This document shows positions 2,342-33,513 of a DNA stretch of 64,000 nt, piece after piece. The stretch lies in contig JAWCCZ010000001.1 in assembly GCA_038861545.1 (NCBI GenBank), positions 224,001-288,000 on the forward strand. Reading direction: 5' to 3'. This DNA comes from Thermofilaceae archaeon. GTDB lineage: Archaea; Thermoproteota; Thermoprotei; Thermofilales; Thermofilaceae. The notes under the pieces are model-generated. The model had not been told where the DNA came from. It did no database searches and was given only the letters and a program-made list of their open reading frames with translations. The translations under genes were made by a program, and so were the position numbers. The first letter of the stretch is position 1; each line of letters opens with the position of its first letter.

Positions 2342-3724
2342 ATGAATTTTCATGAGATACTTGCTGAAGTTTTAAGACGTGAGACCCCGACGGAAAACAA
2401 GACACTTGAAGTTACTCAAACCGTTCAGCAAGTATTAACTACTTTGAAACAAACACTGAACACTGAGGACGTGAAAGCCGAGGTAGAGGTGGAAGGATCA
2501 TTTGCAAAAGGTACATGGTTACCAGAAGATGTAGACGTCGATATTTTCTTGCTATTCGACCCAGTAATACCACTGGAGAAGTTAAGAGAGATTGGTTTAA
2601 GAATCGCGGTTAAAGCCGCTGAGAGCCTAGGGGTTAACTATAAAAGAATGTATGCATCTCATCCTTACCTTACGCTGGAACTGCATACTTGCGAGGTCGA
2701 CATAGTACCAGCTTACAAGGTGTTTTCCCCATCCGAGATTAAATCCCCCGTAGATCGAACACCTTTCCATACAAAATATGTGAAAACTCGATTGGAGGAT
2801 AAACCTGAGCTAAAAGGAGAAATAAGAATGCTGAAGAGGTTCATGAAGGGAATCGGGGTTTACGGTGCTGAAATACGGGTTGAGGGCTTTTCCGGCTACT
2901 TGGTTGAGCTTCTAACCATACACTTTAATTCATTTGTTTCAACTCTGAAGGCGGCGTCTACCTGGAAACCATACAAAGTAGTTATAGATCTGGAAAACTA
3001 CTACAGTGACCCCAAAGAGGCACTGAAAAAGTTCCATGAACCGCTTATAGTGGTGGATCCCGTGGATTCTAAGAGAAATGTAGCTAGCCCTGTTTCACTT
3101 GAATGTATGTGTAGGTTCATCGCGGCGTCTAGGGCATTCCTACGAGCCCCTAACTTAAGCTTCTTCTACCCCGCTAAAACGGGCCAGCTCCCCGAGCTTC
3201 AAGAATTACTGAAGTCAAGGGCTATCGTAGCCTTACATATTGAAATACCAGAGCTACTGGAAGACATCCTTTGGGGACAAGCTAAAAGAGCGCTTAAAGC
3301 ATTAAGCCATGGACTTGAAAAGTACGGTTTCAGCGTCTTAGCCTCCACGGCTTGGTCACAAGGCAAGGAACTAATCCTACTTTTCGAGCTTGAAGAACTC
3401 ATGCTACCCTCCTTGGAGAAACACTACGGTCCACCCGTGTACTCAAGCCATGATGTTAAATTCCTTGAAACATATGCAAGCTCGGTCGCCGGCCCCTACG
3501 TTGAAGGGGAAAGATGGGTTGTAATAAGGCCTCGCCGAGTAAGGCGAGCGGAGGATGCTGTATCAAAGCTACTGTCCTCCTATAACATTGGCGAACACTT
3601 AACATCTAGCTTAAAGGCTGGTTATAAATTATTCATTGGTGAAAGCGTTATAGATGCATCGAGTAATGAAAATTTTAGAACCTTCTTGGCTGAGTGGCTT
3701 ATTCGGAAACCCTCGTGGAGTTAA
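2342..3724 (+). CDS. cca: Class I CCA-adding enzyme
   Basis: GSFAKGTW...DVDIF nucleotidyltransferase motif, plus DRTPFH, GFSGYLVELL and DPVD.KRNVA motifs. Confidence 0.96.
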   Translation: MNFHEILAEVLRRETPTENKTLEVTQTVQQVLTTLKQTLNTEDVKAEVEVEGSFAKGTWLPEDVDVDIFLLFDPVIPLEKLREIGLRIAVKAAESLGVNYKRMYASHPYLTLELHTCEVDIVPAYKVFSPSEIKSPVDRTPFHTKYVKTRLEDKPELKGEIRMLKRFMKGIGVYGAEIRVEGFSGYLVELLTIHFNSFVSTLKAASTWKPYKVVIDLENYYSDPKEALKKFHEPLIVVDPVDSKRNVASPVSLECMCRFIAASRAFLRAPNLSFFYPAKTGQLPELQELLKSRAIVALHIEIPELLEDILWGQAKRALKALSHGLEKYGFSVLASTAWSQGKELILLFELEELMLPSLEKHYGPPVYSSHDVKFLETYASSVAGPYVEGERWVVIRPRRVRRAEDAVSKLLSSYNIGEHLTSSLKAGYKLFIGESVIDASSNENFRTFLAEWLIRKPSWS

Positions 3725-4444: not shown

Positions 4445-6709
4445 TCAAACTATTGGTGAACCTTCAATTGATCCAATTGAGACCAAACCTGTCAACCTTT
4501 TATTGTTTACCTGTTCTAATATCTTAAATGCTTTCCCCTTTGATAAAACCTTATTGTTGTTACCACAGTAAGGTGAGTATATACATTTTGGGCAGCCATC
4601 CTCACAATCGCATAACCTTAAAATCCTTAAAGCTTTTGAAAAGGTATCTTCAAACCGTTCAAAAAGTAGTTTTGAACAGCCGGAGCCACCTGGATAGGCA
4701 TCGTAAATAAATATGTGACCAGTTGGAAAGCTGATTCCTCCTAGATCGGTTAGGCCAGCGCCAACTGCTGCTTGAGCAGCTGTGATAAGCACATGCTCGA
4801 TCGCATGGAATGCCTCTGCATTTCCGATTGAATCCCATGCCGGGTTTATGGGGAATCTTAAAAGCACACCTTTAGTGGCAAATCCATACGCGTACTCTTT
4901 TTCAAGAATTGTTTCACGCAGTGTTGCTCCACTTTCGAAATCTCTTGTAACATAACCGTATACCACTTCCCTTACACTTAACTTCCCATATTCGATACTT
5001 GATCCTAAAACTTTTCGGGAAATCTCAGGCGAAAAACTTTCGGGGGCTGAGTAGTAAAGCGCGCTAGTCACTAAACTGTAATGGCTCGGTAGCCTTGTGA
5101 CCACAGCCCGTGTAGGGGATAGCTCAACGGATAGATAGGTTTCACCACCATGAAGGTATACTCCTCCCGGGAAAAGCTCCTTTAATGCTGCAGGCATGTC
5201 CCTAAGTCCAATAAGTCTCCCCCTAACGTCGTATATCTTTACAACTTCACCCGTACCTCTCAAACCAGGTCTTTTCCGCAGGTAGCGAGAGCCAGCAGAA
5301 GCACATTTAATGTACTTTCCTCCTTTAACAATTTTTAAGAAGCCGCTTTTCAGAAGCTCGTTAGCAATTTTACTCTCGAAAATTTCTAGTTCATCCACCC
5401 GTAGCGGTAGATCCGCAGCTGTAGCAGTCAACTGAATTTTCGCGACTTCTTCGTTATGTGCTTCTATTGCTATAGGTTCAGGTTCTTTACTAAAGAATTC
5501 ATCTGGAAAGTTTGCATAGTATTGGCTGATAGGATCATCTCCTAAAACGGTTAATACGTATGCTTTCCTCCCTCTTCTTCCACAGCGCCCGGTTCGTTGC
5601 ACGTACTTACTGAAAGATGGGGGTATGTTAGCTAGAATCACGCAGTCAAGGTCGCCGATATCTATTCCTAACTCTAGTGTCGGAGTTGCTGTAACGGCCA
5701 TGATTTCACCGTCTCTCAATCCTTTCTCAACTTCCCTACGTTGTTCAGGTAATAGTCCAGCTCTATGTACATAAACGTCAATGTTGAGCTTTTGGCATAA
5801 CCTGAAAATCAGCTCCACAGCCCTATGGCTATCAGCAAATGCTACAGTCTTCAACCCTTTTCTCACACAAGTAGCAATTAAAGCAGCAACTTCAGCGAGC
5901 CTAGATCTCGCAGTAGGTTTTAACATTGCATGTATAACAGCGCTTCGCCTACCGGATCCCAAATGGATAACATTTACTTTATCTCTAAACAGAGATTGAG
6001 CGAATTCTTTCGGGTTACCTATTGTAGCGCTAGTTCCGACAAAAATCGGTTTATTATATAAAATTCTCTTTAACCTTTTCAGCACGTAACTTACATGTGC
6101 GCCTAAAACCCCACTGTAAGCATGAGCATCGTCTAGGACAACATACCTGGCGGTTGAGCACAATATTCTGAACTCCCGCGAGTTCATTAAACCGTAATGC
6201 AGCATATCGGGATTTGTAAGCAATATTTGAGGGGGAAAACTATAGATCGTTTGTCTTTCTTTATCTTTGGTATCACCATCAAGGACTAAAGCTCTAATCC
6301 CGAAAAGAAGGTTAACAAAGGAATTAATGCGTGCTACCTGGTCGCGTGCGAGTGCCTTAGTGGGATAAATCAGTATAGCATGTACTTGCGGCGTGGGATC
6401 CCGTAAAACATCCTCAAGTACCGGGATAAGAAATGCTTCAGTTTTTCCGGTTCCAGTTCCAGCCACTACAAAAGTATTTGACCCCTCTTTAATCGACTTT
6501 ATAGCCTCGGCTTGGAAACGGTATAGCTTGCCTATACCTCTTTTTCTTAGAGCTTCTATAAGAATTTCGGAAGACACGATCTCTTCTACTGATGGCCCTG
6601 GTTCTAGCGGCAGGGGTTTCTCAAGGTATACTTTTACAACTCTATGCCCTTCATCTTTACGCAGCTCATTGATTAACTCATCAGAGTCGGAAAACTCCTC
6701 GAAAGTCAC
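4445..6709 (-). CDS. SF2 DEAH helicase with C-terminal DUF1998 Zn domain (Hrq1/MrfA/SftH-like)
   Basis: GTGTGKT, DDAH, SAT, TLELGIDIG and QRTGRCGR motifs, with C-terminal CDCEDGCPKC. Confidence 0.92.
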   Translation of the reverse strand: MTFEEFSDSDELINELRKDEGHRVVKVYLEKPLPLEPGPSVEEIVSSEILIEALRKRGIGKLYRFQAEAIKSIKEGSNTFVVAGTGTGKTEAFLIPVLEDVLRDPTPQVHAILIYPTKALARDQVARINSFVNLLFGIRALVLDGDTKDKERQTIYSFPPQILLTNPDMLHYGLMNSREFRILCSTARYVVLDDAHAYSGVLGAHVSYVLKRLKRILYNKPIFVGTSATIGNPKEFAQSLFRDKVNVIHLGSGRRSAVIHAMLKPTARSRLAEVAALIATCVRKGLKTVAFADSHRAVELIFRLCQKLNIDVYVHRAGLLPEQRREVEKGLRDGEIMAVTATPTLELGIDIGDLDCVILANIPPSFSKYVQRTGRCGRRGRKAYVLTVLGDDPISQYYANFPDEFFSKEPEPIAIEAHNEEVAKIQLTATAADLPLRVDELEIFESKIANELLKSGFLKIVKGGKYIKCASAGSRYLRKRPGLRGTGEVVKIYDVRGRLIGLRDMPAALKELFPGGVYLHGGETYLSVELSPTRAVVTRLPSHYSLVTSALYYSAPESFSPEISRKVLGSSIEYGKLSVREVVYGYVTRDFESGATLRETILEKEYAYGFATKGVLLRFPINPAWDSIGNAEAFHAIEHVLITAAQAAVGAGLTDLGGISFPTGHIFIYDAYPGGSGCSKLLFERFEDTFSKALRILRLCDCEDGCPKCIYSPYCGNNNKVLSKGKAFKILEQVNNKRLTGLVSIGSIEGSPIV

Positions 6710-16250: not shown

Positions 16251-16946
16251 ATGTCGTGGCAGGATGCAGCTAAAAAGGCTCTTTTGAACGCGGGCGCTCG
16301 AGTCGAAGATGGACAGAAAGGTTTACTAATTAGGAGCGAGGAAGAAAGAGGCGCTACTTTCACCCTTCTCGTGAGGAGGCTCCAAATGAGCCTAGATCGC
16401 AAAGTAGAGCTAGTTGGTACCATTGAAGTATCCCCTTATGGTAATGCTGATGTTTTGAGGGAAATGCTAGCGTCATCCTTCGAGGTAACGATGAAGGGAT
16501 TTATTCGGAAGAGCTTCGCTTGGAAGCATTGGGATGGGCTTCATTCTCTCGAAAGAGTTTTCGCTCCGATAGTATTTAACAAAAAATTACTCGACATGGT
16601 TAAATCAGATAACAGTGTAGTGACCATGTTACGTGAAGCTTCTCCGGACCTCCTTGAGGTTTTCCCAGAGATAATGTCTTCAAGCTTTATGGAGGCATAT
16701 CTAGTCACACCGGCTCCGTTTGAGGGTTCCCTCATTAAGGAGCTTATTAGCAAATACCTCAAAGAGCCGGAGAGATTAGCCTGGTGTATTAGATTACAGT
16801 TCTTATATGGATCTCCTAGGATGCCAGTAAAAATACAGAAGAATTACCAACTAGCGCTGCAATTGGGTAAAAGCTTGAAAAAATTTACTGAACAGCTTTG
16901 CTTATATATTTCTTCCTCTCATCAGAGGGGAGCGAACTCCACATGA
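16251..16946 (+). CDS. Hypothetical protein
   Basis: 231-aa ORF with normal composition and no recognised motif. Its 3' end overlaps the convergent permease gene. Confidence 0.6.
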   Translation: MSWQDAAKKALLNAGARVEDGQKGLLIRSEEERGATFTLLVRRLQMSLDRKVELVGTIEVSPYGNADVLREMLASSFEVTMKGFIRKSFAWKHWDGLHSLERVFAPIVFNKKLLDMVKSDNSVVTMLREASPDLLEVFPEIMSSSFMEAYLVTPAPFEGSLIKELISKYLKEPERLAWCIRLQFLYGSPRMPVKIQKNYQLALQLGKSLKKFTEQLCLYISSSHQRGANST

Positions 16947-19900
16947 GAAGCTGCTTCCTCATGTCGTCTATGAACTTGTAGTTGCTGCTGACCCAGAGGG
17001 ACTCAGATCCAGATAATCTTGTCAGGCTGACTAGGAATACATACCTTTTAACGCTTTTATCAAGTAACGATGTTAACTCGACAGATTGTTGAACACCGGC
17101 TTCTACTGGTGAAAGCGCTACTTTTATTGAAAGCTTCTTAGAGGCATAATCTGGTACTTCAAGTTCCCTAACTACGTGTACACCCTCCTTAGCCGCACCG
17201 GCACCGCTATAGTACTCGTAAAGGTAAGCAAGCATCCCTTTAGCCTCCGCCTCACTAGGCACGCTCACTGGAAGCGGTATTTCCCACCTATTCCCTCTGG
17301 GTTTAGTCGGCGGTTTCCACTTTCTTTCGAGGGAAGGCGTAATTATTCTGGCGGCAAGTGTTGATGGATAAAGCACCGCGGCTAGAGACGCCCCTATTAT
17401 GGCTAGCGTACCTACGATCGTAAAAGCAGAGGCGAAGTTGAAGATATGCTCAAGAGGTAAAGCTCCCGCTAAGATCATCAGCTGTGTCATACCATATCCT
17501 AAGAGGTAGCCGAGAACTATTCCTACAGTCACATATACTAACACTTCTGCTATGAAGAATACAGTGATTCCGAGGGGGGAGAGACCTACTGCGCTCAAAA
17601 CGAAAACTTCCCTAGTTCTTTCTTTGAGATTACCCAGCACCATAACGGCAACATTTAACGCACCGATCACTAACACAGCGACAACCATCTCCCATCCGCC
17701 GACGGATAAACTAGTAAATGTAGACGAAACATAAGCTGAACCAGTATGCGAGAAGTACAAGGGTATGTCTATAGCAAACGCCAGCCCACGGACTGTGGTT
17801 AATAGGGAGTCGGAAGTTACAACCCCCTTCCTAGGAATGAGAGCTATAGAAGCCACATAACCGTTGAGTTCCAAAGCTTTGCGATACGGTACTATGATTA
17901 CTCTAGAAACTCCAAGATTTGGTGGAGAAGCACCTGCCTGAAGTGAAACCGAAATGTCCGGTGCTAATTGGGAAAAGTATATCGGGTCGGTTGGGGTTGG
18001 ACTATAACCATCAGCTTCAAGCATCTTATCTATGAATTCTGGCACTTCAACTATACCGGAGACTACGAATTCCTCACCAAGTAAATATATCCTGTCGCCG
18101 ACAGATAAGCTGAGGTTCTGGGCGAGGGATTTGGACACAACTGCATAGTTTCCCTCGTCAAGGAAAATACCTGCCCCCTCAGTGGCGTTTAGATACAACA
18201 ACTTATATTCTTTCGACGTGACTCCGAGAATCGCGTTTACTGTTCCGTTATTACCTTTTTCACTTACCACTGAAAAAACAAGTCCCATGAGCATTCTATC
18301 TACTGATGGGTAAACCCATACCCGCGGCAAAACCTCATAGTTAGGCCCGGCCATTACTTTTGCGACATTCACAAGCTCGGTCGATAGAGTGTTTGGAGGT
18401 ACACCGCGCCCCTGCTTAATTAATATTTGATCGATGGAGGACTTGTATCCGTACCTTGAAACCGGTAGGGTAATCCTGGCAGGCATCAACGATGTAAACG
18501 ATGTAATCGCTATGGTCATCGCAATAATAGTTGCAAGCATAAGAACTGTCCGCATAGGTCTTTTCCTAATGTATTCGCTACCCATTGAGAACGCAGTTAC
18601 AGCGGTATCCACCCTACTAACCTCTGAGCGGTGAACACCAAGAATCTTTCTTTCGATTCTACTTCTTAAAGCTTCTCCCTCAGATCCTAGCATTACAACA
18701 GTGATCAGTAATATAATTGTTATCAGTGAACCCACAAGCCCTAAAGGTATGTTACTAAGAATAGCGAACGCTGGGTGAATCATTAGGAAAAACCACAGGA
18801 TAACAGCTGCTAATACAGTCATCGTCGCGATTCTTTTTACCCCCTCCCTATGCAATGAGATTTTTTCAAGGAAGAATGCCGCAAAGGCAATTAAGGGGAA
18901 CATGTAAAGCATTGACCGCGCTGCATCATTAACCAAGGGCATTACCTCGCTGCTATAGGCTTTGCTTGCATATGCTCTAGCTACTAATGCATGAGCATAC
19001 GCCTCATGATATAACGTTGCCGAAAACGCCTCTTTAGCTCTATCTAAATGCTCACGCGCTTTACTAAGCGTTAAGTCGGCACTAGGGCTACCCACATGTC
19101 TGTCTACGAAATGCTTGTATCTACCACTTGAAATATAATACATGTCGTTAGCTGCTCTATATGCTGTGAAAATTACCCGGATGTTTTTCCCAGGTGATCC
19201 AATAAACCCGTACCCCTCAGTGTTTTCTGAACTGGAGTTTGTGAGTAGCAAAAATGGTTGAAGAGCTGCTGCCGTTCCTGTCATGCTGGTGTATCCCACA
19301 ACAATGAAGTATGTTTCAGGCTGAGCCCAAACTAAGGCTACATTTTCCCAACCATTGCAGAAATATCCATAGCTGAGAGGTAAGCTTTTGCTAAGTAACT
19401 CATAAGGCTGGAATATTACGGAAGTTTGCCTCCACCAGCCAAAGTAGCTTGTCCTAGGATCGGGCATACTAGGGGTTAGGAGTGTTGATGGTAAATTAAC
19501 GTCGAATAACTCTATTATGACAGCAGGGGCTACAACTACAGTTAGATTTTCATACTCATGTAAAACATTTATTATTTGGGCGAAGTTTTGCATACCAAAT
19601 TGACCTAAATCCGTAGCCATGATAATTGCTCCCTGCTCGTTAAAAACCCACCCCCTTGCAATCCATCTCGAAAAAGGTACAGCTGTGCCTCCGCCGGCGA
19701 CCCTCCCTGCATGTGGTATGCCGTAAATAACAAAACGACCCTCCGCATCAGTTCTGGTTATAATTTTGTTTAACTTATAAGTCGACGTTACTAGCTGTGT
19801 TTCTACAATAGCGTTTGGAACCGGGCTATACCAGCCAGCGCTAAAGTTATATCTTACTACTCTACCATAGAATGTAGTAAACCCAGGATAACCCCTATCG

Positions 19901-21393
19901 GCAGCGAGATCGTAGCGTGTAGGTTTAATTGAGTTTTTGCTAATTTGCCATTCAGTGTTTAATAATTCTAGGACTATATATGTAGTTACTTCAAGGTAGG
20001 GTTTTAAAGCGGATACATTAGCGTACTGCCAGTCATCCACAGGCATGCCGACGTATAGCCTACTCGAATGCCTGCTGGTTATTGAGAAGGAAGGTACCCC
20101 ACTTATAGATGCGGCCTCCGAATCTAGCATATAGGGAATCGGTTCGGTTCCCCAGAATCCCTGGTAAGAGAAGAACGTGCTCACTAGAGCTGATGGACTC
20201 GGAACACCCAGGACCGAGTTCGTATAAGTTCTTAAAGGTTCTTCGGCCAAAATGGTCTGAATCTTATTGGATACCCAGGTAAGCCTAGCGGGGAAGCCTC
20301 CACTGTGTATCGAGTTACCACCATAAGTTGTGAAGTAGCTGGACTGTAACAGTTGAATACCGTCTGAATCGCTGGAAAACATGTCAAACCCTATAAAGCC
20401 CCATATAGTCGTTCTTCCGCTAAGGATTTCTTCATTGAAGAAGTAATCTTCAATGAAAGCCCTAACCCCTGCTAATGCCTGCCAATGACCCGAGAGGAAA
20501 ACCAGCCAGACGGTGTATCGAGGTTTATTTTCTTTCAAATATCTGGCCAGTTCAAGCAAATAAGCAGGGGCTATAGCTTCGGCCTTACTATTCGATAAAG
20601 CTGGAACCACTGACCATGAGTCAAAGTGAGCCGCTAAGATAAGTATATCAGAAGCAGAGCTCCCGTTAATGACAGCGATCAAGTTAGCCGCCTCTATCTC
20701 CTTCCAGGTTATCTTGGATACTAGCCTAATTTTAGAAGCATTCTCTACAAGCTTCCAGTCGTCTTTATTTATGTAAACTCGCGGGAAGTTGATAGGAGTA
20801 TCAAGAAACTTCTTATTGCATTCATAATACGTGGTCGAAATTGGCTCTATGAATATAACCGCCTTTGCACCTAATTTAGCAGCGTTAAGCCAGTTATCTT
20901 GTGAGTTAAATTCCATTGCAACTATACTGCCTTCAATGTTTTTCCCGTTAAAATCGCTTAGTTCTCCCTTACCGACGTAATGTAGTGGGCCTTCTAACCC
21001 TTCTGGTGGTGTTGTAGAAGGATTAACGCCATTCGGGTATAGAGCGTGAACCTTGACCCGAAGGTACGGCGGCTCTAAAACTTCTATATATGCTTCTTCT
21101 TCGAAGGGTACAAGAACTTTATAGGTGTGGGTGGTGACTTTTAAGCCGAGTTCATCTTGAAGGTAGGAATAAATAAATTCTAAGGTTTTCTGGTAGCCCG
21201 GATACCCAGTCATTCTAGAGCCAAAGTTTGAGATAATCTCTACTTTTTCTTCTATCTGAGCGTAATCCAGCTGGGTTAGTGAGACTTCTGGTTTACCAAA
21301 ACTGACAGCTAAATATGCCAAAGTAATTAGGGTTAGTGCTAATACGGCTATAGAATTGCAAAGGAACTTCTTTTTAGGTGTTTGTACTTTCAT
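16885..21393 (-). CDS. 1502-aa FtsX/MacB-like permease with N-terminal PA and degenerate M28 peptidase domains
   Basis: Signal anchor, SRMTGYPG, PA insert (AAKLGAKAVIF), AHFDS, a TM bundle, and the FtsX motif ERTREVFVLSAVGLSP. Confidence 0.85.
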   Translation of the reverse strand: MKVQTPKKKFLCNSIAVLALTLITLAYLAVSFGKPEVSLTQLDYAQIEEKVEIISNFGSRMTGYPGYQKTLEFIYSYLQDELGLKVTTHTYKVLVPFEEEAYIEVLEPPYLRVKVHALYPNGVNPSTTPPEGLEGPLHYVGKGELSDFNGKNIEGSIVAMEFNSQDNWLNAAKLGAKAVIFIEPISTTYYECNKKFLDTPINFPRVYINKDDWKLVENASKIRLVSKITWKEIEAANLIAVINGSSASDILILAAHFDSWSVVPALSNSKAEAIAPAYLLELARYLKENKPRYTVWLVFLSGHWQALAGVRAFIEDYFFNEEILSGRTTIWGFIGFDMFSSDSDGIQLLQSSYFTTYGGNSIHSGGFPARLTWVSNKIQTILAEEPLRTYTNSVLGVPSPSALVSTFFSYQGFWGTEPIPYMLDSEAASISGVPSFSITSRHSSRLYVGMPVDDWQYANVSALKPYLEVTTYIVLELLNTEWQISKNSIKPTRYDLAADRGYPGFTTFYGRVVRYNFSAGWYSPVPNAIVETQLVTSTYKLNKIITRTDAEGRFVIYGIPHAGRVAGGGTAVPFSRWIARGWVFNEQGAIIMATDLGQFGMQNFAQIINVLHEYENLTVVVAPAVIIELFDVNLPSTLLTPSMPDPRTSYFGWWRQTSVIFQPYELLSKSLPLSYGYFCNGWENVALVWAQPETYFIVVGYTSMTGTAAALQPFLLLTNSSSENTEGYGFIGSPGKNIRVIFTAYRAANDMYYISSGRYKHFVDRHVGSPSADLTLSKAREHLDRAKEAFSATLYHEAYAHALVARAYASKAYSSEVMPLVNDAARSMLYMFPLIAFAAFFLEKISLHREGVKRIATMTVLAAVILWFFLMIHPAFAILSNIPLGLVGSLITIILLITVVMLGSEGEALRSRIERKILGVHRSEVSRVDTAVTAFSMGSEYIRKRPMRTVLMLATIIAMTIAITSFTSLMPARITLPVSRYGYKSSIDQILIKQGRGVPPNTLSTELVNVAKVMAGPNYEVLPRVWVYPSVDRMLMGLVFSVVSEKGNNGTVNAILGVTSKEYKLLYLNATEGAGIFLDEGNYAVVSKSLAQNLSLSVGDRIYLLGEEFVVSGIVEVPEFIDKMLEADGYSPTPTDPIYFSQLAPDISVSLQAGASPPNLGVSRVIIVPYRKALELNGYVASIALIPRKGVVTSDSLLTTVRGLAFAIDIPLYFSHTGSAYVSSTFTSLSVGGWEMVVAVLVIGALNVAVMVLGNLKERTREVFVLSAVGLSPLGITVFFIAEVLVYVTVGIVLGYLLGYGMTQLMILAGALPLEHIFNFASAFTIVGTLAIIGASLAAVLYPSTLAARIITPSLERKWKPPTKPRGNRWEIPLPVSVPSEAEAKGMLAYLYEYYSGAGAAKEGVHVVRELEVPDYASKKLSIKVALSPVEAGVQQSVELTSLLDKSVKRYVFLVSLTRLSGSESLWVSSNYKFIDDMRKQLLMWSSLPSDERKKYISKAVQ

Positions 21394-21478: not shown

Positions 21479-23395
21479 ATGTCTGGGAGTGACGACATCG
21501 AATTCAAACCAGGATACACGTGGAGAAGCTTGTTAGCAATGATTTTAGCCGGACTTATTTTTATGCCGGCTTCAGTCTACCTTTGGTTAGCAGTCGGAGC
21601 CGGAGCCAGCACTGCTGCCACGTACGTTACGGTGATACTTTTTAGCGCATTAGCTAGAATATACGGCACTCAGTTAACTAGGCAGGAGTTGTTCATAATT
21701 TACTCTATAGTGGGAGGCATTGGAGGAGCGATGCCGATGTTTTACTGGTTAGTTTTTAGAAGCTACTTTATAAATAACCCACTTAGCTTAGAATTCACCA
21801 TAGAGGGTAAGCCAGTAAGGGACTTTGTACCTTACTGGATGGCGCCCCCTGTAACCTCTTTTGCTCATGCGGCAAGGACATTCTTCACAGTAGACTGGTT
21901 ACCAGCTGTTACCACAACTATTGTTTTCGCCACCCTTAGCCTAGTAGCAGAGTTTTCACTGGGCATGTTGTTTTCGTACCTTTACATCGAGATTGAACCA
22001 CTACCTTTCCCCTTTGCTCAAATCGATGCTACAATGGTAAACACTTTGTATGAACGAGAACACGAGCGCATGTTCTATTTTTTCACTTCGTTAATTGGAG
22101 GGGCCGTATATGGTTCCTTAGTGTACTTGATCCCCCTGATTCTTGGACCGCAGGCTGCCGTAATACCGTATCCCTTCATTGACTTTACTCCGTACACACA
22201 GTTCTTCCTTCCTGGCGCAGCGCTAGGTGTAGCTACAGATCCAACCGCTTTCCTTTATGGAATGGTGCTTTCCCCTACAGTTACCTTTTCAATAATGCTG
22301 GGCTCCCTGGCTACATGGGTTTTCGGGAACACATTAACTCTTATAATCTTCAGGAATTTTTCGCCGGAATGGGTGAAAGAGTACGCTCCCGGTATGGGAC
22401 TTTTCCTAATTTACCAGAGAGCTAGCTTAAGGCTTTGGCTCTCAACTTTTATGGGGTTAAGCTTTGGATTAGCTATTTTCGTATTTATTATAACATGGAG
22501 CAGGCTGTCCAGTGCGCTTAAATCGTTATCAAAGATTAAAGAGGCGAAAGGGGGACCGGGTTATCCTCCAGCTAAGTTTCTGTTGTCAGCTTTCTTAGCC
22601 TCGACTCTTACAAGTGTAATCCTCTACTATTACCTTGTTCCAGGCATACCGCTTTGGCTACCCTTGTTCGTTTCAGTGTTTCTGAGCTTTGTAATCGCTT
22701 TCCTTGGTGCTAGAGTTTACGGCGAACTCGGTTTAACGTTTTCATCAGATTTTGTGTATAATATGTGGAAAACCGCAGTCTACTTCAGCCCATACCAAGG
22801 GTATGCTGGATGGATCTCCACGCCGGTGATTGCCGGCTTTTCAACACCTTGGTATGTTAACGCCACAAAGGTAGCCTACTTGACTAGGACAAAACCCATA
22901 GATTACTACAAGGCTGTTTTGACGTCGTTCGTTATAACAACCTTGTTAGGCCTATTTTTTATGGACTTTTTCTGGAGAATGGCGCCCATCCCCTCTTTCG
23001 TTTACCCATACGTAATGGGTCTCTGGCCGGCTTACGCTATCAGCGACTGTCTATTCGCTACTAGACAGATAGCCGTGAGGTTAGATCAAATACTAGTAGG
23101 AACCGGCATTGCATTAATGGGGGGTTTTGGCGGTTTCATGCTAGCTAAAATCGGTGCACCACTGAACCCGATTGCATTAATAAGTGGATGCTTCTCATTG
23201 CCGCCTTACACTATAATGGTGTTCATAATGTCAATGTTGAGCAGGTATGTGGTGGCAAAAGCCATTGGCAGAGAGAGGTGGGAGGGCATAAAAGCAGTAT
23301 TCATAGCCGGTTTTCTCGCGGGCATGGGCATAGTTGTCGCATCAGGGGTTGCTTTAACATTGTTGTCTAAAGCATCTTGGGTTTGGCCATGGTAG
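21479..23395 (+). CDS. OPT-like polytopic membrane protein (putative peptide transporter)
   Basis: 638 aa, roughly 15 hydrophobic segments, with FKPGYTWRS, LTRQE and EPLPFPFA motifs. Confidence 0.7.
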   Translation: MSGSDDIEFKPGYTWRSLLAMILAGLIFMPASVYLWLAVGAGASTAATYVTVILFSALARIYGTQLTRQELFIIYSIVGGIGGAMPMFYWLVFRSYFINNPLSLEFTIEGKPVRDFVPYWMAPPVTSFAHAARTFFTVDWLPAVTTTIVFATLSLVAEFSLGMLFSYLYIEIEPLPFPFAQIDATMVNTLYEREHERMFYFFTSLIGGAVYGSLVYLIPLILGPQAAVIPYPFIDFTPYTQFFLPGAALGVATDPTAFLYGMVLSPTVTFSIMLGSLATWVFGNTLTLIIFRNFSPEWVKEYAPGMGLFLIYQRASLRLWLSTFMGLSFGLAIFVFIITWSRLSSALKSLSKIKEAKGGPGYPPAKFLLSAFLASTLTSVILYYYLVPGIPLWLPLFVSVFLSFVIAFLGARVYGELGLTFSSDFVYNMWKTAVYFSPYQGYAGWISTPVIAGFSTPWYVNATKVAYLTRTKPIDYYKAVLTSFVITTLLGLFFMDFFWRMAPIPSFVYPYVMGLWPAYAISDCLFATRQIAVRLDQILVGTGIALMGGFGGFMLAKIGAPLNPIALISGCFSLPPYTIMVFIMSMLSRYVVAKAIGRERWEGIKAVFIAGFLAGMGIVVASGVALTLLSKASWVWPW

Positions 23396-23454: not shown

Positions 23455-25563
23455 ATGACAACCGAATACAGAAAAGAGGTTGTCGAGTACCTACCAGGTT
23501 TAACGAAGCGCTCGCTTGTAATCGGCATCCCGTTGCTGCTGGTTTACGCCTATCTCTCCGTCATCGTAGGTTTATACACAGATAAAAGTGGGACATTCGG
23601 AACATTCGTTATACCGATGATATACTTGGTCTTCATCTTTGAACTCCTTGGTCGAGCAAGCCCGAAGCTCAGGTTAACGCCACAGGAGTGGGTGTTCGTT
23701 TTCTCCCTTTTCACGTTCATGGGTATGCACAGTTACTTAACCATGCACGCAGCGGCGCATGTTAACCCACCCCAGTACATCTGGAGCTGTATCCCATGGG
23801 GAGATTACCTAGGTTTCACAACCGGAGGTTTAGAGAATTACTGGAGCGCTGCCGTACCGGCAGTATCTGTACCACCTGAACCATTACGTTTTGAAGTAGC
23901 TCGAATGATCCGCAGCGGTAGGAGCATTGGCCAGGAGATTCCATGGGGCGCGGTTTTGCAGCCTCTATTCTACTGAGGAATAGTATACATATTTTACTGC
24001 CTAATTAGTGCTTGGGTTGCCTTTACGTTCGGTAAACCTTGGGTTGAGGAAGAGCGCCTAGTATTTCCGCTAGCTATCCCGTCGCTTTACTTGTTTAGGG
24101 AAGCTACTGAAGTATCAGACGGAAGAAAATCAAGGTTATTCGACTTCAGAGTACCGCACACCAAGGTCTTCTGGGCGATGTTTGTTGTCGGAATCATTAG
24201 CGGTATAAACCCGATACTAGCCGAGCTGCTGCCAGCTTTTCCGATCGGAGCTTGGTGGGGGGAGACAAATCTACAGCTGACATTTTTAGGTAATATGTGG
24301 CCGGGAGTCTACGCAGCCGCGATATTCTTCATCCCGCAAGTAGCAGTAGGGCTCGTGATGCCCAACGACGCTCTGATAACTTTAATTCTATGCTGGATTA
24401 TCTTTGGAGTCCTCTACCAAGGTATCGCTGTGATGACAGGTCAAGTGCAGTACAACCCCGGTATGGAATACGTATGGCCTTGGGAGGATTACCCTGGAGT
24501 TTGGATGCCGTTTCCATACAGGTTTATTGCATCTAACGGAGTTGGCTTAGCTATTACGATATGGATGCTCTTCAGATATCGGAGAAGATTCGCAGAGGCT
24601 TTTTCAACGCTGTGGAAGCGGGACATATCGGAGCGTGGTCTCTCCTTAAGACTCGCAACGATTCTAATGCTTATAGGCTTCTTCGGCTGGTATGCCATAA
24701 TGCTCATGGATCAAGCTAGCCCAATCGTAGCTTTACTAGTACCGTTCTGGGCGCTGCTATGGAACATTTGCTTTGCCAGGGTTTTCGCTGAAGTATTCTG
24801 GCACGTTGGTACAGGTTGGGGCCATACGTGGATCCCGACTTACGAGTTCGGCAGGCTTATACACGGATGGCGGGCATGGGATCAAGTTACCTGGGACAAC
24901 CCGATGACTGATTCAGCATGGTTCACCCCTGCAAGGCATATAGCAAACTTAAGTAACTGGAACATCTCCTTCAGCCCGTTAAGCGCCGGCCATCAAGTCA
25001 CTCTGTACAAACTCGCATATGATCTGAAAATGAGACTTTCCGACCTATTAGTAGCAATCATCATCGGCGCTCTAGTCTTCTCGTTTGTAGCCATGCCGAT
25101 TGAAGCATACTTTATCCTGCACACAAAAGGCGGCTTAGATGTTACGAACGCTGCGGGTGCGAACTGGTGGCCGTGGATGGCAGCCGGCTGGTACCACAGA
25201 GGGTACTGGATGGCCACGGGTATGACGCCAGATACTGTTGGATGGCTGTTCTACGGTGTGGGCTTAGCGCTTGGCTTAATTTTCTACATACTTAAGGCGA
25301 GGTTTACTTGGTTCTGGTTCATTAGCGTGCCAGCTTTGTACATTGGCATGACGATTGTGACCTACATGTGGTTAACTTCTCTGCTCGCTTTGATTATAAA
25401 GTTTGTGGCAATAAGAACTGTAGGCATTAAACGATACGAGGAGTACGCTACACCCGCTGTAGCTGGTTGGATTCTTGGTTTCGGTGCCGCATGGTTGCCT
25501 GCAGCGCTCGTTAACTTCTTCGTAGTTGTCCTACCAAGGTTAAGCGCGCTCTGGGTACCTTAA
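23455..25563 (+). pseudogene. Second OPT-like/DUF6785-like membrane protein interrupted by one in-frame TGA
   Basis: ORFs 23455-23976 and 24091-25563 share a frame. After TGA 23974-23976 the frame reads GIVYIFYCLISAWVAFTFGKPWVEEERLVFPLA, a paralogue of the EPLPFP motif. Confidence 0.8.
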
Positions 25564-28807: not shown

Positions 28808-28897
28808 ACCACGAGTCTAAAGCCGTTAAAGATTTCCATTGTAGATTCCGAGCTTACTACGAGTTAAAGGTTGCTTATACATGTTTTAGCTGCCTGA

Positions 28898-29326
28898 CAC
28901 GACAGTGAAATTTTTAGGTATGCGAATGCTGAAGAGAGAAGCTTAGAAGGATTTTTCTGTTCTTACTGCCATTCTCCTCTGCTTGGAAGCTCTTCAAATC
29001 CTTCAACAACTACCGAGGATGGAGTTTACCTAGGCGATATAGAAGGAGAAAATTCGCCTCTAATCTTACCTATTAACCCATACTTTGGATTCCACTTCGC
29101 ATTTTACGGTGTAACTGGCACGGGAAAGACTAGGGCAGCCATGAACCTTGCGATAAACGCTGAGAATAAGGGCTTATGCCTAAGAATACTAGACGTTGAA
29201 GGAGAATGGAAAAAGATAATTCCAAAACTGAGCAAGGAAACTATTTTCTACGATTCAGAATATAACCTTAAAGTTAATCCATCTTTGGTATTATCTCAGC
29301 GAAGATTAATTCGGCTAGTTTATTAA
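28898..29326 (+). pseudogene. Fragment of a HerA/DUF87-family P-loop ATPase
   Basis: Open frame lacking a start codon: GVYLG...HFAFYGVTGTGKT (Walker A, 29108-29131)...ILDVEGEW...KVNP, then it stops. Confidence 0.75.
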
Positions 29327-30012
29327 ACTCCATAATGGACAACCCACCAATTATATTCATCAATAAGTTTAGCCAAGGTTTTTCTACCATACTCTCGACC
29401 AAGTTTATTGCTTGGAAGTTCTCGGCAAATTCTCTCTACAATTTCCTTTTTGTTACATCCGCTCTTTTTTGCTTCCTCTTCTATCGCCTCTTCCACTTCT
29501 CTCTTAACCAGCTTTAGGAATTCTAAGTAACCCTTTGCGCCTCCTGCGACTTTATATTTTCTCCTGATATCATCATCCCACATTACGAAGAGTTCTGGAT
29601 TAAGTAAATGCAGGATCTTGGAGATTGCTGTAGCTCCTATGTAATCCACCTTTGCTGAACTATAACATTTTATGATAGCATCTGCTATTTCTTTATCCTC
29701 GAGATTGATATCTAGAAAAGTTTTACCTTGTAACTTTTGGAAGGATTCTTTAGAGTTACGTAATTGCTCAGTAAGTTGTTTCCAATCCAAATCCTTTCTA
29801 TCTACAGTTCTTCCCATTCTTCCCCATTGAGCAAGAAACATCTTAATTATTTGTTTCACATGCCTCTCTAATTCCAATCTGCCGAGGTCAACTCTGACCT
29901 CTTTGAGCATTTCAAGAGCCTTAAAATACATGTATTCGCCAAACCAGAAGGAATCTTCAAAATTCCTAACACTCTCAACCAACTCTCTGTACCTCATGCT
30001 AAATCTCCTCAT
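29323..30012 (-). CDS. AT-rich hypothetical protein, possibly HhH-glycosylase-like fold (DUF6308-like)
   Basis: IGATAISKILHLLNPELFVMWD and KLIDEYNW motifs. Lower GC than flanks; probable start at the second ATG after GAGGAG. Confidence 0.55.
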   Translation of the reverse strand: MRRFSMRYRELVESVRNFEDSFWFGEYMYFKALEMLKEVRVDLGRLELERHVKQIIKMFLAQWGRMGRTVDRKDLDWKQLTEQLRNSKESFQKLQGKTFLDINLEDKEIADAIIKCYSSAKVDYIGATAISKILHLLNPELFVMWDDDIRRKYKVAGGAKGYLEFLKLVKREVEEAIEEEAKKSGCNKKEIVERICRELPSNKLGREYGRKTLAKLIDEYNWWVVHYGV

Positions 30013-30111
30013 TTCCTAATTCATCCTAACAACTTAAATTAAAAACACGATATAAAATTAACGGCAATTTTCTCTCAATAAAACTCACTCTCCCTAATAA
30101 CATCTCTTTTC

Positions 30112-31368
30112 ATGGCTAAGGTAATTATCGAACCAGCTGGTGATCTGCAAATAGAGGGAATGAACATTAAATATGGTCCCGGAAGCCTATTTAAAGCAAA
30201 AGTATGGGTGGTTAACGATGCTTCGAATATTTCAGGTGTTCTCTTTAAGTTGGGAGTTTGTGGATTTAAATGTAAGTCAAGTACTGGATAAAGGGTATTC
30301 CCAAATAATTATCCCTCGTAGCGAAGAGCCGGCTACGCTAGCTGCCTCTATTTGTTTTTCGATACCTGTGTACACAGATGGCATGCATGAAGTTGAGCTT
30401 AGGGTTACCTTATTGATGGGGGATGTAAAAGTTGATGACGAGGTTTTCAGCTTTTTTAAAGTTGCACCGGCAAGCGAAGTTATCGTAAAGCTAGTCAATA
30501 TTACCGAGCCGCTAAAATTTTACGTAGAGTACTGAAGGGTATTCTTTCTATCTACAATCTAGGGATGGAAGAAGTGTCTTCTATCTCCCCACGGGCTCGA
30601 GGGCAGTGGTCTATGGTCCAGTGCTTAACGTATCTTCTCCCTATTTACCAATAGTATACGACTTGGGCGTCCTACAAACCGGTGTAATAGAACTAGAGTT
30701 AACACTCATTGAGGGCTCACTATTCATTGTTAGAACGCCAATGCCTTCGCTAGATGGTTCACTACCAATGATCAACTTAAAAATTAAACCTTTTTCGGAA
30801 TTACCTGGACCGTACATTTTATCATACGATTCCTCAAGTATTGCTATCGCTTTAGCGCTTGGCTTAACAGGTTATCAGTTTATACTGCCGGCGAGGATTC
30901 CCCTCAACGTGTCTTACGATGTAAAGTGGGGTTTAAACCAAGTATCTTTTACAGTAGGCCCCTTAAACTTAAGCAAAGGCGAAGTGTATATTGATGATAG
31001 GCTGGCAAAACTGTTAGCCAGCGAAGCGTTAGAGTTTGGCAGCAAGGATATTTCAAATGCCTTAGCCAAGTTGACGTGGCTCGAGAAACGGGGTTTTTAC
31101 GCAGGTTTAACTAGGGAGATAGTTAAAAAAGCATCTGAAGCAATTGACGAAGCCCGTAAGACAATAGAAGACTCGCCCGAAGTATCCTCAACGCTCGCGA
31201 GGGAAGCTAGAAACTTACTGGTAGCTGCCACCGAAAATATAGGTAAAATTTATGCAGGGCTAAGGTTAACATCCTTCTCTTCTTTTTATTATTATTATAC
31301 TAGCTTCGCTTGGTTTTGCCTCAATCCTTGTTGAAGAGGAGCCTAAAAGACCGGTTATTGGAGTAGCA
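30112..31368 (+). pseudogene. Frameshifted 5' part of a second FtsX-like large permease gene
   Basis: Reading continues across three frame changes (~30240, ~30530, ~31270-31300): MAKVIIEPAG... / ...FYVE / STEGYSFYLQSRDG... / ...IIILASLGFASILVEEEPK. Confidence 0.7.
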
Positions 31369-33513
31369 GTGCTCGTAATTCTGGTAGTGATGGTTTACGT
31401 GACGTACCCAGGTATCACAGAGGTCGATACAGTCGAGCTTTTCTTAGGTATGTATACGAGCTTTTTAGTATTTATTCTCCTGATTGTGACACCCTATCTC
31501 CTTGAAGGGGTAAAAAGCGAAAAAGGTTTGCTTGTGTTTACCGCCGTGGCTATGGCGCTATCGGTAGCGGCTAGGAATCTGAGAAGAAGGGGTTTACGTA
31601 CCGCTCTAGCCCTGTTTTCAGTTATTGCTCTTTCTCTGGCTGTTTCCAGTTTATCTTCTATGAGCTACTACGCTACTACAAAAGAATTGGTGACAACGGT
31701 TAAGGCTCAAGGGAGCGCGGATAACTTCCTGATGGTTTTCAGTAAACACAGTCTGACTTTCGATGACATCATATACGTGTTTTCGCAGCCAGAAACGCTA
31801 GAGGCTGGCTTCATACTGAGTAGCGTGCCGCGCCTTGAACCCTACGGCTATCATGCTACTAGGACCATCAGAGCCTTTATCGCCGTACACGGGTATTCAC
31901 CGATAAGGTCAGAGCTGTCAAAGATCGTCCAGCCGTTAGCTGCCATTGAGGAGCTTTCACAGCGTAGCGATACGGTACTCGTGAGCAGTGCTTGGAGGGA
32001 CACTGGTGTGCAACTAGGTGACATCGTAGATCTCGCTGGTATTAAGTTGAAGGTAGTCGGTTTTTATGACTCGAAGACTCTATCCTCTATAAAGGACGTT
32101 GGAGGTTACGATATTTTACCACTAAGTACCCGCCCCGATGGGGCGGTTGAACCAGTTCATCCGGACGAAATGGTAATTATAGCGCCAGAAGTAGCTATAA
32201 GGCTAGGAGGATTTACAAAACGAATCTACGCGAAAACCGGCAGTGATCGTGAGCTTTTGAATTTGGCTAAGAGGTTAAGCACACAGGAAGAGTATATAGC
32301 CGTAGCTAAGCCGGCAGACGGGTATATTAGGATTTACTTCCCAGGATTCACTGTTGAGTTTAGGGGGAACGAGGCTTTCTTGCCGATGGCTTTCGTATTT
32401 CTGAATATAGCAACCGTGGTTTTAGCGTCGGTTTACGAAAGAAGAAACGAGATTTTTACGCTAGCTTCTATAGGTTTGAACCCTACTCACATATTTTCAA
32501 CATTCCTATCCGAGGCCTTTCTACTAGGTTTCATCGGTGGGGCACTTGGGTACCTTACGAGCTTTACAGTATTTAAAGGTCTACAGTTATCTGCAGCAAT
32601 GGTGCCGGTCGATGTAAAAAGCGACTTCCATAGTATGCTTTTCATCATAAGCTTGTCAACAATTTCATCCGTAGTTGCTGGTATAATTCCATCCCTTAAG
32701 GCTTCAGCTTATGCCACTCCATCTTTAACTAGGCGATGGAGACTAGAGGCGGAAGTCGCAAGCGGTGTATGGAAAGTTGAAATCCCAGCCAGGGTGACAG
32801 AAGACAAAGCACTACAGTTCACCGAGTTTATTGTTGAAAGGTTAAGAGAAGAAGGGTACGGAATAGAGCGGGTTATAACAGACGTAAGCATGCATGAAAA
32901 GGTTGAAGGGGGAATGCAGACCTACGAGATTAAGTTTACTTACAGTAAAGGTGGCGGACAGGCCTTCACGGCTCCAAGCAGGCTGGTTATAAAGCCTTCA
33001 AACCAGGAGTTTTACAGCGTCCAGCTGCTAGTGGAGCCACGCTCAGCGTATCCAAAGCTTTATCAGAGGCACGTGCAGGAAGTATCGAGTTTTGTCAGAA
33101 ATGTGACCCTTGAATGGGCGTCACTGCGGGTTAGATTATTGGTGCCTGTGGGAACTGACCCAAGTTCTGTAGTGGAGCTTATCCGTCACTACAACCCACA
33201 ACTTGTAATAATTATAAGTAGAAGAGGAGATCCAAAAATCGTTAGAGAAATCAGAGGTAGGATTCGCGGTTTAGGATTACGTCCACCAGCGGTTGAACTC
33301 ATCGACCTTAAAAGTAAACAAATTGATGAGCTGGTAATTGAAGTTAAAAACCTTATTTCTAAGGCAGATATTATTGCAATAGACTCGGATGACGGAGTCT
33401 TAAGCGCTATAGTAGCACTCGTGGCTGCAACTGAGGGACGAAGGGTATCGGTATTGAAGAATGGAAAAGTCGAAGAAACAAGCGTAGATAAGCTCCTTAG
33501 ACCAGCTGCTTAA
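31369..33513 (+). CDS. FtsX-like permease (intact 3' part) with a C-terminal CARF-like Rossmann domain
   Basis: RNLRRRGLRT, ERRNEIFTLASIGLNP and TPSLTRRW, paralogous to 16885-21393. Carries an extra ~125-aa tail. Confidence 0.8.
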   Translation: MLVILVVMVYVTYPGITEVDTVELFLGMYTSFLVFILLIVTPYLLEGVKSEKGLLVFTAVAMALSVAARNLRRRGLRTALALFSVIALSLAVSSLSSMSYYATTKELVTTVKAQGSADNFLMVFSKHSLTFDDIIYVFSQPETLEAGFILSSVPRLEPYGYHATRTIRAFIAVHGYSPIRSELSKIVQPLAAIEELSQRSDTVLVSSAWRDTGVQLGDIVDLAGIKLKVVGFYDSKTLSSIKDVGGYDILPLSTRPDGAVEPVHPDEMVIIAPEVAIRLGGFTKRIYAKTGSDRELLNLAKRLSTQEEYIAVAKPADGYIRIYFPGFTVEFRGNEAFLPMAFVFLNIATVVLASVYERRNEIFTLASIGLNPTHIFSTFLSEAFLLGFIGGALGYLTSFTVFKGLQLSAAMVPVDVKSDFHSMLFIISLSTISSVVAGIIPSLKASAYATPSLTRRWRLEAEVASGVWKVEIPARVTEDKALQFTEFIVERLREEGYGIERVITDVSMHEKVEGGMQTYEIKFTYSKGGGQAFTAPSRLVIKPSNQEFYSVQLLVEPRSAYPKLYQRHVQEVSSFVRNVTLEWASLRVRLLVPVGTDPSSVVELIRHYNPQLVIIISRRGDPKIVREIRGRIRGLGLRPPAVELIDLKSKQIDELVIEVKNLISKADIIAIDSDDGVLSAIVALVAATEGRRVSVLKNGKVEETSVDKLLRPAA

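Follow-up and report, generated by a model that had tools for sequence, protein, structure and literature searches.

The 64,000-nucleotide stretch of Thermofilaceae archaeon DNA analysed here (assembly GCA_038861545.1, contig JAWCCZ010000001.1, positions 224,001 to 288,000; 'the window') carries at 31369-33513 on the forward strand an open reading frame (ORF) of 714 amino acids that ends in a CARF domain. An FtsX-like permease part runs up to 'LEWASL' and is followed directly by the last 128 residues (587-714). A preliminary description, made from the sequence alone, had remarked that a paralogue in the window lacks this tail, and had proposed a CARF-type Rossmann fold that could place a transporter under nucleotide or cyclic-oligonucleotide control; the sequence does contain the ORF, the extra tail and the peptides quoted then. 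The tail is a genuine CARF domain of the family CARF_m8, conserved on giant archaeal envelope proteins, in which the pocket that grips cyclic oligoadenylate (cOA) in other CARFs appears to have become acidic. The ORF and the domain are built from the following parts.

31615..32130, +, MacB-like extracytoplasmic core (PF12704, E 0.006, a weak match; orthologues 1e-4 to 1e-8)
32386..32706, +, FtsX/LolE-type three-helix permease domain (residues 340-446; PF02687, E 1.9e-12; hydropathy)
32731..33126, +, putatively cytoplasmic domain of ~130 amino acids, KA1/helix-grip-like, between the last transmembrane (TM) helix and the CARF domain (AlphaFold2, pLDDT 86)
33127..33513, +, CARF-fold domain of the CARF_m8 family, a predicted cytoplasmic homodimer (ORF residues 587-714; AlphaFold2, Foldseek, VIA, PADLOC and dimer model)
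33151..33159, +, equivalent of CARF motif I, G9-T10-D11, at the end of strand 1 (family G-x-S/D)
33382..33396, +, equivalent of CARF motif II, D86-S87-D88-D89-G90, replacing T-G-G-R-K (ungapped register to Sis0455)
33394..33432, +, helix after motif II, predicted dimer interface (domain residues 90-102; AlphaFold2 and dimer model)

The AlphaFold2 model of the tail, from a 49-row alignment, has a pLDDT (predicted local distance difference test score) of 93 and the order b1-a1-b2-a2-b3-a3-b4-a4-b5-b6, giving a four-strand Rossmann-like core with a C-terminal beta-hairpin, as in the CARF fold. In an exhaustive structural search (VIA) the top 20 matches were all CARF proteins, at Z 13.8 to 8.5, led by Csa3 (Z 13.8, root-mean-square deviation (rmsd) 4.0 over 126 aligned residues) and Can2 (Z 13.6, rmsd 2.9 over 120) and also including VC1899, Csm6, Cad1, Crn1, Card1 and Cam1; the best non-CARF match reached Z 8.4, and UspA Z 7.4. 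The top 26 rows of a Foldseek search, a check that had been suggested at the outset, were likewise all CARF, and an Atlas shape search agreed. An Atlas feature search gave the HFX_2341_N, Card1 and Csa3_N clusters at 0.82-0.87, which is a lead only, and a second Atlas search gave no match. Pfam and NCBIfam held no significant CARF match to the tail, and a PDB sequence search gave CARF matches below threshold only. The fold assignment of the preliminary description is borne out by the structural comparisons.

The tail is not a chance extension, because it is matched over long stretches by 19 cluster representatives (E 1e-44 to 1e-4) and at full length, at E<=1e-19, in 38 of 401 Thermoproteota genomes from nine families. 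One further match, P0020, proved to be a spurious repeat. About 80 sequences carry the domain (35 non-redundant at 70%), as the C-terminus of FtsX proteins of ~1800 or ~1050-1150 amino acids, or of their fragments. No stand-alone full-length copy was found among proteins of 65-233 amino acids, the short matches that were checked or labelled being gene fragments. Between intact orthologues the CARF domain has the lowest ratio of nonsynonymous to synonymous substitution (dN/dS) of all segments, 0.05-0.11, and is under strong purifying selection.

The fusion of CARF_m8 to a permease is already catalogued. PADLOC-DB contains two models, PDLC01990 (CARF_m8--CARF_Beta-galactosidase_LolE_TM, 1791 positions) and PDLC01991 (CARF_m8--CARF_LolE_TM), and both architectures, with and without the GH2 glycosidase, occur among the homologues found. 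The tail matches positions 1664-1790 of PDLC01990 (E 5.7e-55), the ORF matches the same model at E 1e-296, and an intact orthologue does so from end to end; the window copy shows the combination of CARF_m8, LolE/FtsX and TM segments without the GH2 part, and differs from the catalogued proteins only in being broken. The catalogue entry, the N-terminal GH2 of intact members and the pseudogene state had all been overlooked in the preliminary description. CARF_m numbers come from the 2020 classification of CARF domains into major and minor clades (PMC12409355, PMC10018336), and the CARF_m8 label would go back to this classification by Makarova et al. (NAR 48:8828). A search of the literature for 'CARF_m8' or CARF with LolE, which lay outside the 2020 classification itself, found no functional study, and the 2014 CARF paper names no permease fusion (PMC4012209). 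The architecture is thus known but its function is unstudied.

Two copies of the tail are predicted to fold as a two-fold homodimer through residues 85-102, with a score of 0.74 against 0.39 for the best control, contacts that agree by at least 91% between runs and a pLDDT of at least 86. Among solved homodimers 20 of 30 reach the score mark, against 1 of 23 monomers; the score may partly reflect likeness to solved CARF dimers. As in CARF proteins generally, the predicted pairing is at the b4-a4 region and forms a shared pocket, modelled here ligand-free. At the end of strand 1 the tail has G-T-D, where the consensus of cOA effectors is G-[TFS]-[SN] and Sso2081 has G9-T10-S11 (PMC10018336). 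Of the three positions of this motif, the first is Gly in 22 and the last is Ser, Asp or Asn in 29 of the 35 non-redundant homologues, whilst the middle residue is variable. R32, Y22, P24, P54 and E117 are also conserved.

Motif II is where the family departs from the cOA effectors. The family hidden Markov model aligns without gaps to the ring nuclease Sis0455 and places DSDDG onto TGGRK, so that the earlier reading of DSDDG as a degenerate second motif holds. Position 88 is acidic in 34 of the 35 homologues (Asp in 30, Glu in 4, Gly in 1); the exchange of Asp for Glu means that the charge is kept there even when the residue changes. Position 89 is Asp in 26 of 35, and position 90 is Lys in only one. 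The motif II of cOA effectors, [DN]x[ST]xGx[RK] with its phosphate-binding Gly and Arg/Lys, is not present in the tail. These are the residues that contact the cOA phosphates in Csa3 (PMC8699464) and that hold them, through Gly amides and Arg/Lys, in Sso2081 (PMC10018336). Judged from the alignment, the floor of the motif II pocket is charge-reversed relative to cOA-binding CARFs, and the dimer model brings D88 and D88' together on the two-fold axis, at the site that cOA would occupy.

Intact long members of the family consist of a signal anchor, a GH2 glycosidase array, a beta-rich spacer, a helical stalk and three to four TM helices, followed by a C-terminal half with the MacB core, the FtsX domain, the KA1/helix-grip-like domain and the CARF domain. 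Their first TM helix, extracytoplasmic core and three-helix FtsX domain give them the layout of type VII ABC (ATP-binding cassette) permeases. In MacB and FtsX proteins the domains after the last TM helix are cytoplasmic, on the side where the ATPase docks, and by analogy the KA1-like and CARF domains should lie inside the cell. The KA1-like domain matches Kcc4 KA1 (VIA Z 10.3), METTL16 VCR (10.2) and StART-like domains (9.3), a tie between KA1 and START/SRPBCC. It is common to the whole giant-FtsX family and found in 76 of the 401 genomes; 39 of its best 40 matches have a CARF domain directly behind it. Of 19 aligned orthologues, 8 retain the acid/base (N-E-P) and nucleophile (T/S-E-F-G) glutamates of GH2, the orthologue from the same genus among them, one has Asp for Glu, and 10 have lost them; both glutamates are intact in Thermofilaceae-type members. 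A large subgroup (P0012, P0024, P0025, P0028 and relatives) lacks both glutamates, and GH2 is therefore probably a glycan-binding pseudo-enzyme there.

The window's genome (1.63 Mb, 92% complete) encodes some ten giants of the FtsX type; all of these paralogues except one stop shortly after the shared cytoplasmic domain. Besides the paralogue in the window, seven others lack the tail and one has a divergent tail (G000 C1:393098-389820, 1090 amino acids); a weak third match at C1:434120 was rejected, as it falls inside an rRNA methyltransferase-like ORF. The 1090-residue protein, which alone has Lys at the canonical position, belongs to a second, apparently intact cluster (G000:C1:389820-406889) that also contains a URO-D-like gene, an anchored surface protein, DUF6785, a 1491-residue FtsX giant, an OPT-like gene and a 798-residue multi-TM partner. 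This cluster is a better experimental target than the window copy. In a FastTree phylogeny of the FtsX and middle domains, for which sampling was biased toward CARF carriers, these carriers all lie on one side of a deep split from the M28-type giants (support 100), with two long-branch CARF-less rows among them. The tree is compatible with one gain of CARF and later losses. In one family (L071-L074, L084), stand-alone three-TM FtsX proteins of 198-200 amino acids are encoded three genes from the CARF-bearing permease.

Upstream of the ORF the window contains the paralogue without CARF and two further membrane proteins.

16885..21393, -, paralogous M28-fold/MacB/FtsX giant without CARF, 1502 amino acids, ending 14 residues past the shared region
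21479..23395, +, OPT-like membrane protein of the same machine (39% identity over 646 amino acids to the OPT-matching neighbour of an orthologue)
23455..25563, +, DUF6785/6784 membrane protein, interrupted in frame by a TGA at 23974-23976 (uninterrupted in G037, a genome of the same genus)

The TGA splits the DUF6785/6784 gene into 173 and 527 amino acids and is also present in GCA_038844615. Among 20 long (GH2-type) loci, 14 have a head-to-head partner gene for a multi-TM protein of ~775 amino acids, 8 a UbiA prenyltransferase and 6 a BacA/UppP-type lipid-carrier phosphatase; the partner looks glycosyltransferase-C-like. OPT-like and/or DUF6785 genes occur at 9 of the 12 short-type loci and a PMT-like gene at five. 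Such neighbours suggest that surface glycans are handled on lipid carriers, or that glycans are taken up. No LolD/FtsE/MacB-type ATPase gene is adjacent in the window or a conserved neighbour at the examined loci. Three LolD/MacB-like candidates lie elsewhere in the genome, at 237-250 bits, below the TIGR02211 cut-off; the ATPase may be supplied in trans. A functional link to the adjacent phosphoribosyl pyrophosphate synthase was considered and dropped, as that gene lies near in five Thermofilaceae loci only and not elsewhere. Further off, window 4445-6709 (-) encodes an ordinary MrfA/DUF1998-type (Hrq1-like) helicase, adjoining the gene for the CCA-adding enzyme (2342-3724).

The locus has no CRISPR context, as had been stated before. 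Among the cyclic-nucleotide synthases Cas10, mCpol and DAC, searched for in carrier genomes that are 70-99% complete, Cas10 is present in 9 of the 38 CARF_m8 carriers against 117 of the 363 other genomes (Fisher p 0.36, with related genomes not independent of each other). In each of the nine, the Cas10 and CARF_m8 genes are on different contigs or over 160 kb apart. Neither mCpol nor DAC was found in any of the 38. CARF_m8 is linked to none of the three and is not enriched in genomes that have them. In the window's genome a Cas10 with an intact GGDD motif lies at a contig end (G000:C1:553620-555925), and no Csa3_N-type CARF was found.

The copy in the window is itself broken. The 714-residue ORF is the last 40% of a gene for ~1800 amino acids, and the remains of the gene and of what replaced it can be laid out against the 1801-residue orthologue from the same genus.

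28840..30109, no strand, 1.27-kb segment of low GC (37.7% against 44%), replacing 4.4 kb of the orthologue
28925-29287, +, truncated piece of a HerA ATPase (PF01935, E 5e-7)
29323-30012, -, ORF of 229 amino acids without confident family, inside the low-GC segment
30110..31290, +, broken 5' remnant, orthologue residues 672-1060, with frameshifts near 30240 (-2), 30527 (+1) and 31288 (net +1)
31273..33513, +, surviving open frame, orthologue residues 1057-1801 (77% identity), with its first start, GTG, at 31369

The frameshifts map to residues 712, 808 and 1061 of the orthologue. The 4.4 kb replaced held the partner membrane gene, the shared promoter gap and the GH2 half (residues 1-671), and the low-GC segment is the remnant of a foreign island that displaced them. 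Sequencing error was rejected as a source of the frameshifts because three other assemblies (GCA_038844615, GCA_038868595 and Logan SRR21619492) share the same breaks. In a sister lineage with 88% DNA identity the gene has four different frameshifts and two stops, whilst its neighbours are intact. It is very probable that the window copy is a recently inactivated, non-functional remnant. It is improbable that selection has instead preserved the ORF, after loss of its 5' part, as a shorter permease-CARF protein that still works. The three frameshifts do fall within 1.17 kb, whilst the 2.2 kb that follow are free of them (chance about 0.04), GGAG stands six bases before the GTG at 31369, and dN/dS against the nearest relative is 0.12 in the unbroken part. 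However, dN/dS is as low in the frameshifted part (0.14), which means only that decay set in recently, and the fact that the 3' frame is open does not speak for a function that continues. Moreover, three of the sister-lineage lesions fall inside the equivalent stretch, the copy has lost its native promoter, its signal anchor and its first TM helix as well as the partner gene, and the neighbouring DUF6785 gene also has a nonsense codon.

At the junction (30110-30112), after an AT-rich gap, an ATG is in frame with orthologue residue 672, so that translation of a form without GH2 may have been possible until the frameshifts arose. A sigma-70 promoter scan, a method unsuited to archaea, gave only chance-level matches. 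Several lineages have independent breaks in this gene or in relatives of it (L085:4725-10125; L032:1004-6351; L028:8524-11670; L094:12151-15831), with four frameshifts and two stops in L085, five pieces in G038 and two in G018, whilst the protein of G140 ends right before CARF. These breaks suggest repeated loss of a dispensable surface function, with assembly error possible in the cases that are metagenome-assembled genomes (MAGs).

Taken together, the features of the intact proteins may be explained by a recruitment of CARF_m8, probably ancient and single, to one branch of the giant MacB/FtsX proteins of archaea, which are type VII ABC-like. Such a protein would have a GH2 glycosidase or another beta-rich ectodomain outside, a MacB/FtsX core in the membrane, and the KA1-like and CARF domains inside. 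Beneath the membrane, the pairing of two CARF domains about a two-fold axis would hold two permease chains together. Since D86, D88 and D89 of both chains, with R32, would line the shared pocket with acid, what binds there would be cationic and not cOA: a divalent metal, a phosphate compound bridged by metal, or a basic segment of a protein. The dimeric cap would tune what is presumably an envelope glycan-processing machine and not antiviral defence. We put the probability of this reading at roughly 45%.

Several points weigh against it. Second-copy orthologues in G046 and G048 stop before CARF, and the domain is dispensable there. Motif II drifts in deep branches (S-G-D-H, Y-D-S, T-T-D-L), the divergent paralogue in the window's genome has the canonical Lys, and S-D-D-G could be a mere helix cap. 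The GH2 glutamates are lost in most members that are not of the Thermofilaceae type, so that the outside function varies, and the glycosyltransferase identity of the partner has only a weak PF10131 match behind it. Finally, most carriers are incomplete MAGs in which CRISPR loci may be unassembled; this softens the missing link to an alarm source but does not overturn it.

The alternative that survives best, though we hold it doubtful, is that CARF_m8, as a pseudo-CARF, does no more than dimerise, and that its aspartates occupy the former phosphate site and cap the helix of the dimer. The domain would then be a ligand-free clamp on two permease chains, or on two heteromeric machines. Such a role would suit the tight two-fold packing of helix 90-102 in the model, the loss of all basic pocket residues, the poor conservation of the aromatic residue of motif I, and the absence of the domain from most family members and from close orthologues. 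However, conservation is concentrated on the pocket loops (G9, S/D11, R32, S87, D88, D89), the change of Asp to Glu at 88 preserves charge and not capping geometry, and two aspartates meeting on the axis need a counter-ion. An acidic pocket with a cationic partner remains our preferred account, and a bolder proposal, that CARF_m8 senses a non-CRISPR small molecule in its charge-reversed pocket (a metal-bridged nucleotide or sugar phosphate, for instance, or a polyamine) and allosterically gates the type VII ABC-like glycan machine, is at present unlikely.

It is less likely still that the KA1-like and CARF domains are a docking platform that recruits or blocks an ATPase encoded in trans, or another cytoplasmic enzyme. 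The lack of a conserved ATPase neighbour, the three candidates elsewhere in the genome and the position of both domains on the docking side would suit this, but most paralogues share the same ATPase need and do without CARF.

Switching of the permease or glycosidase by cOA or a similar cyclic nucleotide, the control that the preliminary description had in mind, would link the type III CRISPR alarm to envelope remodelling, for example to the removal of a virus receptor. The CARF fold and dimer geometry, the fit of G-T-D to motif I, the Cas10 of the window's genome, the listing in PADLOC among CARF models and the repeated breakage of the gene in Thermofilaceae, as might befall a virus-exposed surface function, all speak for it. 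Against it, the phosphate-binding Gly/Arg/Lys have become Asp/Asp/Gly, 29 of the 38 carriers show no Cas10, the domain tracks neither Cas10 nor mCpol or DAC, and its neighbours are envelope-glycan genes. CARF_m8 is thus probably not a cOA sensor, and we regard this reading as very improbable. That the tail is some other Rossmann-like domain (USP, receiver or half a glycosyltransferase) is effectively refuted, for although no Pfam CARF match passes threshold and GT-B and USP domains reach Z 7-8, 5 Z units separate the best CARF from the best non-CARF match, and the strand and helix order with its terminal hairpin, the dimer mode and the PADLOC match are all those of CARF.

CARF_m8 shares with the cOA-binding proteins Csa3, Can2/Card1, Csm6/Csx1, Cam1, Cad1 and the ring nuclease Crn1 the fold (Z 10-14) and, as predicted, two-fold dimerisation via the helix after strand 4, and it resembles them in the Gly-x-Ser/Asp that most homologues have at the end of strand 1. 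It differs from them in the acidic motif II, in standing at the C-terminus of an envelope protein of 1050-1800 amino acids, and in having neither a nuclease, helix-turn-helix or pore effector nor linkage to cas genes. Cam1 is the only membrane-linked structural match, and has a single short TM helix. A precedent for the missing basic residue after strand 4 is provided by non-CRISPR CARFs. The 2014 paper says of other families without this residue that they probably bind other ligands (PMC4012209), and RtcR is associated with damaged tRNA (PMC7790460). RtcR-type CARFs are soluble transcription regulators, none on a permease, and these sources describe no acidic floor for them.

On the membrane side, MacB, LolCDE, FtsEX and YbbAP-TesA share with CARF_m8 proteins the module of TM helix, periplasmic core and FtsX domain, and coupling of an FtsX-type module to a hydrolase outside is known from FtsEX-PcsB/EnvC and YbbAP-TesA (PMC12646458). 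Unlike these type VII ABC systems, CARF_m8 proteins fuse the hydrolase in cis, add three to four N-terminal helices, carry cytoplasmic KA1-like and CARF domains, lack an adjacent ATPase gene, and are partnered by OPT/DUF6785 or glycosyltransferase-like proteins.

To our knowledge, nearly every CARF domain that has been studied responds to an alarm nucleotide of CRISPR by activating a toxic effector. In CARF_m8 the scaffold is maintained, in several classes of Thermoproteota, on a membrane protein that does not serve defence, apparently with the charge of its pocket inverted. The window copy matters little in this, and an intact orthologue is the proper object of study. As a predicted dimer of 128 residues from a thermophile, the domain offers a cheap test of CARF sensing beyond cOA, and the family provides a handle on an uncharacterised envelope machine of FtsX, OPT and DUF6785 proteins. 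If the gating by a small molecule were true, CARF_m8 would be the first CARF sensor for envelope metabolism and would hint at an unrecognised archaeal second messenger.

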